Source: a virus (Duplodnaviria; Heunggongvirae; Uroviricota; Caudoviricetes). From it: DNA of 14,420 nucleotides. Numbering within the stretch: the stretch's first letter is position 1; every line of letters begins with the position of its first letter. Under the pieces are notes generated by a model, which was not told where the DNA came from, did no database searches, and saw only the letters and a program-made list of their open reading frames with translations. The DNA lies in the IMG/VR virus record IMGVR_UViG_2574180220_000003. One strand, 5' to 3'. The translations under genes and the position numbers were made by a program. Positions 1 through 14,420 of the stretch are shown piece by piece.

Positions 1-1131
1 TCAAATGACCAGTTTTTTCCATTCCTTACCGCGTGCGTCGTTGTAAATATCGGTCATTTTTTGATTCGAATGGCCTAGCAAAATTTTGGTATCAACCCCC
101 TGCTCTCTGAACAATCGCTCTGATAAAGATCTCTGCTCATGGAAAGAGGGAGGGGTGCCATTAGCACGCCAGTTGTAATCCACAGAATCCCGGGCTTTTT
201 TAAATGCAACGGTTAATGTTGCTGGCTTAACCATCCCGCCGCGCTTAGCTGTCCCTTTCGCGTGATGGTGGTGCAATAGCCACGGACTAAGAACGCAATC
301 GCGGCAGGATGACACCACATCATCCAGGGTGAGATTTAATTTATCGCAACGCAGAGCCAGAGGGATGGCAATCCGGGTTCCTGTTTTTTGCTGTTCGACA
401 TGAAGATAACCATCCCGGATATCCGAAAATTGCATTTTGCAAATATCTGAAAGGCGCTGGCCTGTCATCAGTGCCAGCAGCATACCGCGCTGTAAAAAGT
501 AACCATCCTTTTCCGCTGCGTTATAAATCATCATCCACTCATCAAAAGTCAGTCGCTGTCTTGATATCCGCACCTGCGGTTTTTTTGCCGATTCTGCAGG
601 GTTAAAGCCTGGCGGGACATCGCCCGTTTGCTGAGCTTCCCGGAAAACATCGATCAGTACCTTCCTGAAAATTTGTCCCATTCTGTTATGTCCTCTGGCC
701 TTGTACTCTTCCAGTACTGATACCACATCTTTTACGGTTATGGCATCTAACGGTCTGGTGCCAAAACGTTCATCAAATACCCTGAGAGGGGCCGCTTTCT
801 GTTTCAGCGTGTTGAGTTTGATCTCGCCGTTTTCATATCTTTCCTGTTGAATTTTTCTGTAATTATTCAGAAAAATGGTAACGGTTGATGAACCGCCGGT
901 ATCACTAATAATTTTCTCCTGCAGACTGAGCATTTGTTCCATTTGCTGCCGGGCAAGACGGCTGTTCGCTTCTGCTGCAATAGTTTCTGCCAGTTTCTGG
1001 TCAATACTGCCGAGACCGTGATTTTTGCCTGTTATGGGATGCCTGTAACGCCAGTAAACTTTGTTATTTCTTTTGTCAAAATACGGAGATAATCCCGGAA
1101 CATTGGTTTTATATTTTCGCGGGCGCGCCAT
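1..1131 (-). CDS. int: Phage tyrosine integrase (site-specific recombinase); stop codon at 1-3, so the gene is complete at the window edge
   Basis: 376-aa ORF with the integrase-like C-terminal region (HHHAKGTAKRGG ... LLGHSNQKMTDIYND, candidate catalytic Tyr in DIYND). It is terminal in the element and immediately downstream of an excisionase-like ORF. Confidence 0.88.
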   Translation of the reverse strand: MARPRKYKTNVPGLSPYFDKRNNKVYWRYRHPITGKNHGLGSIDQKLAETIAAEANSRLARQQMEQMLSLQEKIISDTGGSSTVTIFLNNYRKIQQERYENGEIKLNTLKQKAAPLRVFDERFGTRPLDAITVKDVVSVLEEYKARGHNRMGQIFRKVLIDVFREAQQTGDVPPGFNPAESAKKPQVRISRQRLTFDEWMMIYNAAEKDGYFLQRGMLLALMTGQRLSDICKMQFSDIRDGYLHVEQQKTGTRIAIPLALRCDKLNLTLDDVVSSCRDCVLSPWLLHHHHAKGTAKRGGMVKPATLTVAFKKARDSVDYNWRANGTPPSFHEQRSLSERLFREQGVDTKILLGHSNQKMTDIYNDARGKEWKKLVI

Positions 1132-1357
1132 CTTCCAGTATCCTCTTCAAAGCAGGGTGATCTGTGGCGATCACCTCCGGCTTGTTTACCATTCCGACAA
1201 AGCGAGCTTGCGGATCCACTCGCCAGCGTCTTCCAACTTTTTTGGGGAGAGGAAATATCATTCCGGCTTTAGCGTATTTACTTAACGTACTCGGAGTTGG
1301 GACCGGTTCACTGAATTCCTCTTTTGCCCACTCAGTGAGCAGAATAAGTCTTGCCAT
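1109..1357 (-). CDS. xis: Excisionase / small DNA-binding recombination directionality factor
   Basis: 82-aa basic ORF immediately upstream of int, overlapping its start by 23 nt. It contains a KKVGRRWRV-type winged-helix motif typical of Xis proteins. Start codon uncertain (no clear SD). Confidence 0.6.
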   Translation of the reverse strand: MARLILLTEWAKEEFSEPVPTPSTLSKYAKAGMIFPLPKKVGRRWRVDPQARFVGMVNKPEVIATDHPALKRILEDGAPAKI

Positions 1358-1421
1358 GAGCGTCGTTCGCTAATCATGGTCGCCGCCACTATAGCTGGTG
1401 GGCAACGACCGGGGTTGAACA

Positions 1422-14135: not shown

Positions 14136-14185
14136 TCATTGGGATTATGCCGCAGACACGTCGTATGCAGGAACGTGCTGCGGTT
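13970..14185. repeat. Direct repeat copy 2 (tfa-like 3' end plus downstream hairpin)
   Basis: Same orientation as copy 1; the hairpin arm is diverged (ccgcagacacgt...acgtgctgcgg). Confidence 0.8.
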
Positions 14186-14249
14186 AGTTTGTGAGCTTTC
14201 GATAGTGGTTGTTATTTTTGCCCTTATTTGTTCCGGAGGCCATGGTTCA

Positions 14250-14420
14250 ATGGTCCGTCTGCCCCCTGTGGTGATGTCAGCAAAATCAGCCACTGCGCGA
14301 ACCACAATAGCCCGGGAAGATGCTGAAGATCACCAGGTAAAGCTATCAGCGCAGAAACTGGAAGAACTGCTCGCATCAATGGTTAAGGATGAGGTTGATC
14401 GCAATGATGGGATTTATTGA
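14250..14420 (+). CDS. Hypothetical small protein (56 aa); stop codon is the last 3 nt of the window
   Basis: ATG at 14250 with GGAGG about 11 nt upstream; MVRLPPVVMSAKSATARTT...DEVDRNDGIY. No recognisable motif. The longer ORF-track start at 14139 lacks support. Confidence 0.25.
   Translation: MVRLPPVVMSAKSATARTTIAREDAEDHQVKLSAQKLEELLASMVKDEVDRNDGIY

Follow-up and report, generated by a model that had tools for sequence, protein, structure and literature searches.

Introduction

Prophages integrated at the 3' end of ompW (PPompW) were reported in 44% of 767 complete Escherichia coli genomes, all of them apparently defective, and the copies in phylogroup A were described as "highly degraded by deletions" (Nakamura et al. 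2021, PLoS Pathog, PMC8112680). Here, we analyzed a stretch of 14,420 nucleotides recorded in IMG/VR as a virus of the Caudoviricetes (IMGVR_UViG_2574180220_000003), referred to in the following as the window. It very probably takes in nearly all of a cryptic lambdoid remnant, 14.9 kb long and of the PPompW family, derived from a lambda-like parent of ≈48 kb by two microhomology deletions, J1 and J2, and without capacity for replication, lysis or packaging. Decay in this family has already been described, and the element is an additional deletion form of it. A preliminary description had called it a defective prophage, unable to function as a phage, and comparison with whole prophages bore this out: the two internal deletions removed the immunity, replication, lysis and virion-assembly genes.

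Like the PPompW prophages, the element sits in the 3' end of ompW, a segment of which is duplicated, has its surviving modules in lambdoid order, and has the same left arm (int-xis-exonuclease-ydfD-dicB); positions 1-4676 are 96.8% identical to PPompW_132418. It differs from them in having two deletions seen in none of the complete genomes searched and a late region with iraM, tRNAs and a methyltransferase. The PPompW copies of O145:H28 strains end on the right with a type III effector locus (EEL) and a 21-bp secondary attB, whereas the window ends with stf'-tfa-methyltransferase.

Three other groups of lambdoid elements are close to parts of it. Qin of E. coli K-12 has int, a ydfE-type exonuclease, ydfD, dicB, dicF, and then ydfU (DUF968) and Q in the same order, followed on the right by the terminase remnant nohA fused to a truncated stf and by tfa; it is likewise non-inducible and lacks head and tail genes. 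However, Qin retains the dicA/dicC immunity genes, ydfA-C, relBE-hokD, lysis genes and nohA; its int is disrupted, it carries an IS2 insertion, and it lies between ydfJ and rspB, whereas the window has intact int and xis and has lost immunity and lysis. The right end of DLP12 (K-12), tfaD-ybcY-tfaX with the methyltransferase on the opposite strand, is 96.5% identical to positions 12648-14112, and DLP12 has a terminase::tfa deletion joint of its own with TAT microhomology; it differs in having lysis genes and nohD, another integrase and site, and a methyltransferase pseudogene. The late gene order Q, methyltransferase, ileZ/arg-type tRNAs, iraM and nanS-p is that of Shiga toxin (Stx)-converting lambdoid phages, and positions 6985-11045 are 90.7% identical to Stx2_EH2246, but the window has no stx genes, a truncated nanS-p and no lysis cassette.

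A Prophage Remnant at ompW

The window was compared with the ompW prophages of strain 300709 (L001) and of ST131 O25b:H4 (L002 and L033), the latter essentially full length. Alignment resolved it into three blocks, 1-4676, 4675-11097 and 11095-14420, which span every base, are collinear with L001 and L002, and are 96.5-99.3% identical to them; both breakpoints are sharp and the parental sequences are known. The surviving modules follow the order seen in the relatives, with four modules lost through J1 and J2. The preliminary description had the window running from int to the tail fibre with none of the immunity, replication, lysis, packaging, head or tail-shaft genes. Since the three blocks fill all of it, no space is left for such genes, and none was found in the window or its flanks by open reading frame (ORF) analysis, domain scans and gene annotation of the flanks.

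The host flanks and attachment sites, which the same description placed beyond the window, were located in contig JJLZ01000026.1 (GCA_000627925.1, 150 kb), which has 3 mismatches to the window in 13.9 kb. On the left, an intact ompW adjoins int and is followed by yciC, yciB, yciA and tonB; on the right is a 38-aa ompW' fragment, followed by yciE, yciF, yciG and trpA-E. An identical 28-bp core, CAGTGTGGTACATGGATATCGATACCAC, occurs at both ends, 137-164 bp to the left of position 1 and 311-338 bp to the right of position 14420, so that the element measures 14.9 kb from att to att and the window is short of the two att ends only. The duplicated ompW segment forms attL and attR, both just outside the window, and the lambda-type Int and excisionase beside attL are homologous to intE/xisE of PPompW. 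The structural and lysis genes have not been moved to a place just beyond the window, as host genes abut both ends.

An element of ≈15 kb with int and xis beside an att site and no virion genes might also be a phage satellite, similar to the phage-inducible chromosomal islands (PICIs), or some other purpose-built small mobile element. We consider this extremely improbable. Domain scans found no repressor, primase/replicase, ori module, capsid-redirecting or small-terminase gene of the kind that a PICI carries. All segments are collinear with full-length lambdoid prophages at 97-99% identity, and the two gaps are simple joints of 2-3 nt within genes that leave DUF968, nanS-p and stf truncated.

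Both joints are common to eight draft assemblies, GCA_000627925.1 and seven others identified by an exact-protein look-up, on contigs of 50-200 kb. In the 5,426 complete E. coli genomes searched, the window was not found as a single piece and 301-bp probes across J1 and J2 gave half-length matches only. The best match among these genomes, strain 300709, covers 94% of the window, spread across 28.5 kb, and the median genome has 6 places that match the window. An exact-match scan did not find J2 in the species-representative genomes of GTDB, in which E. coli has one representative. Given the high identity to the relatives, the 3 single-nucleotide polymorphisms (SNPs) relative to the sibling assembly, and the absence from the complete genomes, the deletions appear to be of recent date. 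Lambdoid prophages are rich in repeats, and in a draft assembled from short reads, as the source is, repeat collapse might have created the joints. This is very hard to reconcile with the eight assemblies that have the same arrangement, with an independent, read-derived Logan contig that crosses J2, and with the 2-3 nt shared at the joints, which are well under any assembler k-mer; we give such an artefact almost no weight.

The Two Deletion Joints

The features of the window are listed in Table 1. At J1, the left parent reads ...GGAAGGAATA|ACCCCG (the bar marks the crossover), 88 nt past dicF, and the right parent reads ...TTCTGGTA|CCGGAACTCGG at codon 10 of DUF968, giving the product GGAATACCGGAAC. 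According to the annotation of the relatives, 7.1-7.7 kb was lost, comprising the dicB-operon promoter region, ydfA-C, a LexA-family repressor, cro, ydaT, the replication genes and hokD. The joint replaced the native start and first 10 codons of DUF968, in frame, with a fortuitous putative GTG start at 4653; the gene caller gives a product of 349 aa, against 348-351 aa in the relatives. No obvious Shine-Dalgarno sequence precedes this GTG.

At J2, the left parent, ...CAATGGTAC|AGCAG, lies within nanS-p and the right parent, ...AAGGGATTAC|CGGAGCTTTG, within the side tail fibre gene. Of the 617 residues of the nanS-p product, about 259 remain, followed by 11 codons read out of frame into stf; L002 holds a full-length nanS-p. 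By the annotation of the relatives, the loss took in the remainder of nanS-p, the lysis genes for holin, endolysin and spanin, the genes for terminase, portal, capsid and tail, and two-thirds of stf on its 5' side; for a lambda-like parent this would amount to ≈26 kb by the coordinates of lambda and the ST131 prophage.

Both events would be RecA-independent deletions at the level of microhomology, J1 at a shared TA with loss of the leftward-operon promoter region, cI/cro-like immunity, replication and hok, and J2 at a shared TAC with loss of the nanS-p remainder, the lysis cassette, terminase, head, tail and 5' stf. Deletion by insertion sequence (IS) elements was considered and rejected, as neither joint carries an IS element or IS end, in contrast to the ompW prophage of Ec-U4, where IS26 occupies the equivalent position and the late region next to it was lost, a different route of decay at the same site. 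Strain 300709 shows further deletions: a terminase::tail-fibre fusion ORF, and an internal deletion in nanS-p between 22-bp repeats. The fusion ORF (L001 30330-34553, 1,407 aa) is annotated as "terminase gpA endonuclease subunit" and appears to be an in-frame fusion, by a separate deletion, of a terminase large-subunit N-terminus to a tail-fibre C-terminus, of which the last 465 aa are identical to stf' of the window.

Table 1. Features of the 14,420-nt window (positions are those of the window).
Feature	Position	Strand	Evidence
Tyrosine integrase, lambda Int type, arm-binding and catalytic domains, full length	1-1131	-	Pfam PF09003, PF00589
Excisionase, xis	1109-1357	-	Pfam PF07825
YdfE-like 823-aa exonuclease, C-terminal DEDDh 3'-5' domain	1422-3893	-	PF16473, 3e-63
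ydfD (DUF1482)	3986-4177	-	PF07358
dicB, cell-division inhibitor	4174-4362	-	PF05358
DicF small RNA (sRNA) gene	4537-4588	-	Rfam RF00039, 76.7 bits
DUF968/YdfU, HNH-like domain	4653-5702	+	PF06147, PF16784
Joint J1, shared TA	4675-4676		Parent and product sequences
RusA Holliday-junction resolvase	5703-6083	+	PF05866
Late antiterminator Q, 273 aa, no frameshift	6080-6901	+	PF03589
Putative PR'-like promoter and tR' terminator	6905-7008	+	Pattern matching alone
Conserved 65-aa ORF, followed by terminator-like hairpin (7312-7329)	7128-7325	+	Conserved in relatives
Orphan type-II-like N6/N4 DNA methyltransferase	7476-8525	+	PF01555; PADLOC MTase_II 1e-165
tRNA, anticodon CAU (tRNA-Ile in relatives' annotation)	8575-8650	+	ARAGORN, Rfam
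tRNA-Arg, anticodon UCU	8751-8827	+	ARAGORN, Rfam
DUF3927	9327-9458	+	Domain scan
STnc100 sRNA	9524-9713	+	Rfam
Anti-adaptor IraM	9739-10074	-	NCBIfam IraM 162 bits, cut-off 121
Truncated nanS-p, DUF1737 and part of SASA esterase	10320-11132	+	Domain scan, relatives
Joint J2, shared TAC	11095-11097		Parent and product sequences
Side tail fibre C-terminus (stf'), 465 aa	11105-12502	+	PF07484, PF03335 and PF02413 (stf' and tfa together)
Tail-fibre assembly gene tfa	12502-13086	+	As for stf'
Class I S-adenosylmethionine (SAM)-dependent methyltransferase, low GC, ybcY-like moron	13141-13809	-	Domain scan
tfa remnant	13866-14135	+	Domain scan
DUF4376 remnant	14139-14420	+	Domain scan

Function Left After the Deletions

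In lambdoid phages, the expression of int/xis, the dicB operon, the nin region and Q normally depends on the early leftward and rightward promoters, combined with control by antitermination or of the cII type. With the PL/PR-equivalent promoters, any cII-dependent promoter and the early control region deleted, int, xis, dicF/dicB, DUF968, rusA and Q are, on our analysis, most likely silent or leaky. The tRNAs, iraM, STnc100 and the methyltransferases, which would have signals of their own, are most likely the parts still expressed.

The preliminary description had credited the element with an intact Q-PR' unit. The Q gene is indeed intact, unlike its ST131 orthologue, which is frameshifted. 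Downstream of it, pattern matching gave a promoter-like TTGATT-N-TGTGGTAAAT, and a terminator scan placed a strong hairpin at 6982-7001, followed by a T-run, a layout that is structurally plausible as PR'-tR'. However, J1 removed the early rightward promoter region and thereby orphaned Q. With int and xis severed from the leftward promoter and Q from the rightward one, the element is unlikely to be inducible. SOS induction is impossible, since no repressor remains to be cleaved; the repressor/operator switch and the replication, lysis, terminase, head and tail genes of an inducible phage are all missing.

Some points weigh against this account of a remnant left by two defined deletions. The int and xis genes may have weak promoters of their own, and the element may excise as a non-replicating circle. 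The promoter- and terminator-type matches were no commoner than in shuffled sequence across the scanned region. Moreover, the two parental ends of J2 never occur together in one relative, and the size and content of this deletion were estimated from two. As a separate observation, in a 31.5-kb entry named "Escherichia phage 204576" (CP025907.1, L031) the tail-fibre end (about window 11558-14420) lies directly upstream of int (about window 1-3949). This is the arrangement expected of an excised, circularised or permuted PPompW-like element, and relatives might still excise.

Retained Genes

The retained genes match their orthologues in length. Integrase and excisionase, which the preliminary description listed as retained, are both full length: Int matches its counterpart in the ST131 ompW prophage at 376 of 376 residues, and Xis those of the relatives at 82 of 82. 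A recombination module had also been proposed. Of this, the exonuclease is present and is full length relative to its relatives, but it is a lone DEDDh-type enzyme: it scored 280 bits against the NCBIfam ExoVIII model, for which the cut-off is 1269, and is thus no RecE equivalog, and domain scans of the window found no RecT or Bet annealase as its partner, as a RecET or Red module would have. YdfD and DicB are identical to the L001 proteins (62/62 residues for DicB). Compared with the layout of the Qin operon, the promoter of the dicF operon and ydfA-C are deleted.

The proposal that the element carries cargo of foreign composition was supported by two low-GC stretches (34-45%, at about 8500-10500 and about 13000-14250), GC being ≈50% elsewhere in the window. 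The two tRNA genes are retained, as had been noted. The interval between the tRNAs and nanS-p (8828-10319) holds DUF3927, STnc100 and iraM only, with no stxA or stxB; IraM is identical to that of at least one relative over 111 of 111 residues. No nuclease gene is present beside the methyltransferase gene at 7476-8525, and PADLOC detected no defence system among the cargo genes beyond this orphan methyltransferase. The conserved 65-aa ORF had no family match in Pfam, NCBIfam and PADLOC scans.

At the right end, stf' is identical to the L001 fibre over all 465 residues. Direct repeats of the 3' end of tfa (12921-13135 and 13970-14185, 91% identical) flank the SAM methyltransferase gene, which has the appearance of a moron cassette that came in through a duplication of tfa. 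Inside tfa, at 12845-13043, lies a match of 224 bits to Rfam IS009. The ST131 prophage L033 has an invertible tail-fibre segment bounded by Din-type crossover sites, TTATCGAATACCTCGGTTTACAGGAA, at 16453-16484 and 19544-19575. It has an alternative stf'/tfa' pair in inverted orientation and the decayed gene of a Pin-like recombinase; the lineage of the window shows no such segment.

A TA Pattern at Deletion Joints

The products of J1 and J2 both read TACCGGA. To catalogue deletion joints, every fetched locus was compared by BLAST with lambda and with the ST131 prophage, and manual cases were added, which yielded 17 joints with both parents known. Nine had an exact TA-containing identity at the crossover: J1 (TA), L054-a (TAC), L165 (TA), J2 (TAC), E::stf (TA), L006 Nu1::C (TA), L054-b rusA::stf (TA), L014 A::B (TAC) and A::tfaD of K-12 DLP12 (TAT). 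Joints of this kind lie at about 3519-3522 in L054, 5207-5214 in L165, about 12005-12007 in L006, about 7660-7662 in L168 (DLP12), and 4675-4681 and 11095-11101 in the window. Two more cases are consistent with TA, but not decisive: exo::ren of L006, with an ambiguous GCGCCTA identity, and nohA::stfQ of Qin (L169), at the nohA/stfQ overlap, where the left parent alone is known and its match ends in TA. In these genomes, TA would be expected to make up 0.029 of 2-nt identities arising at random, and a binomial test for at least 8 of 16 joints, run before the DLP12 joint was added, gave P ≈ 5e-9, for a pattern that was found post hoc in a small sample biased toward loci fetched for other reasons, with some parental sites common to several events. 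One partner reads TA|CC in seven of the nine TA events, and TA|CC occurs at 4 of the 15 unique parental sites.

Two parental sites were each used more than once. Three different deletions, J1, L054 and L165, have in common site A, TA|CCGGAACTCGG, which lies in DUF968 at its 5' end. This site (GTTCTGGTACCGGAACTC) has the near-palindrome GTTCTGG-TA-CCGGAAC. In L054 it was joined to GCCGGATA|CAGAG, between dicB and dicF, and in L165 to GAGTGGATTA|TCCGGATG, in a replication gene. Scans of viral contigs for site A behind any dinucleotide but TA gave no match. Two deletions, in different phages, share site B, TA|CCGGAGCTTTG in stf: J2, and one in a lambda-like prophage at the bio locus in which capsid gene E (GAGGTGGATA|TGGGCC) was joined at the same nucleotide (L006, L014 and L028). 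The reused sites thus read TA|CCGGA(A/G)CT. The three bio-locus prophages share the capsid E::stf deletion and differ in a second, terminase-portal deletion (lambda 697->4878, 1024->4501 and 1759->3883), which amounts to stepwise, lineage-specific erosion after a common first event.

These data raise the possibility, which we put forward tentatively, that sequence-directed breakage and joining at TA steps, with TA|CCGGA(A/G)CT as a reusable site, has repeatedly carved lambdoid prophages into an int end, a Q region and a tail-fibre end. Rather than generic end-joining, the deletions would then be the work of an enzyme acting at TA|CC-type sites, such as the RusA of the prophage itself, an HNH junction nuclease, an integrase or other recombinase at GTGGTA-like pseudo-cores, or a topoisomerase, a proposal that we likewise consider doubtful. 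The frequency of TA, nine joints of 17 against an expectation of 0.029, the reuse of sites A and B, and the scans for site A speak for it, as does the att core, which bears GTGGTA...TACCAC arms; RusA cleaves 5' of CC. Against it stand the post hoc nature of the pattern, a small sample whose joints are in part not independent, and the low count of TA|CC among the unique parental sites. A single Int is difficult to invoke because the affected prophages (DLP12, Qin, lambda-like and PPompW) have different integrases, and RusA because Qin has no annotated rusA between ydfU and ydfT. RusA, integrase at pseudo-sites, gyrase and the near-palindrome of site A are candidates that each cover only part of the joint data.

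Other mechanisms were rejected. Quasi-sites of a Din-family invertase (Pin) do not account for J2: the ST131 sites, TTATCGAATACC-TC-GGTTTACAGGAA, have a TC/GA centre and are located elsewhere. A restriction break at W^CCGGW fits sites A and B only and leaves the TA of the left partners unexplained, so it fails as a general model. Classical short-homology illegitimate recombination uses microhomologies of ≈9 bp (PMC11372144), compared with the 2-3 nt at the joints of the window. Rpn nucleases have no sequence specificity (PMC5350276) and were rejected as makers of the joints for this reason.

The window also has a high density of two short motifs. TACCGGA occurs five times, all on the + strand (5182, 11653, 12779 and both joints), compared with a mean of 1.06 in shuffled sequences, none of which reached five in 200 trials; in the lambda and ST131 prophage reference the heptamer is about twice as frequent as expected. 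The Chi octamer, GCTGGTGG, occurs ten times in the 14.4 kb (1394, 1983, 4814, 4872, 5278(-), 5330(-), 7037, 7354, 7375(-) and 9395), or once per 1.4 kb; dinucleotide-preserving shuffles had a mean of 0.38, and 0 of 200 reached ten. On average, the E. coli genome has about one Chi per 4.6 kb, a density several-fold lower. In L068, one of the relatives, a deletion has a 10-bp microhomology, TGGTGGGTGT, overlapping two of these Chi octamers, those at 7354 and 9395.

Discussion

The preliminary description considered the retained content consistent with selection for cargo or regulatory functions. In its full form, this explanation holds that the element is domesticated: DicF/DicB, IraM, the rare-codon tRNAs, the methyltransferases and Q would be kept for the benefit of the host, and the deletions would have been favoured for removing lethal functions. 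Every retained ORF is intact, iraM and the tRNAs have plausible host functions, and strain 300709, Ec-U4, L054, Qin and DLP12 all keep similar content at the ends and in the Q region and have lost morphogenesis genes. However, intactness is uninformative if the deletions are recent, as the 97-99% identity to full-length relatives and the few SNPs relative to the sibling assembly would have it. The distribution is narrow, with eight assemblies and none of the complete genomes, the same deletions separated Q, int and dicB from the promoters that served them, and the reuse of endpoints favours mutational bias over selection. We therefore consider domestication unlikely, and prefer the reading of the window as a decaying PPompW-family remnant.

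The reuse of deletion endpoints suggests that mutational bias has a part in the convergence of such prophages on an "ends-only" architecture. The stronger version, in which TA hot spots would make the shared architecture of this element, Qin and DLP12 the outcome of a mutational mechanism and not of selection for cargo, we offer with considerable reserve.

As a prophage remnant, the element is routine, one extra form of decay in a widespread and defective family. It is also a resolved case of a 48-kb phage reduced to a 15-kb fossil in two steps, in the course of which the regulators Q, Int and DicB lost the promoters that drove them. If the TA-centred reuse of endpoints proves to be general, the convergent content of cryptic prophages would be read as mutational bias rather than domestication, and the reuse would point to a specific enzyme.

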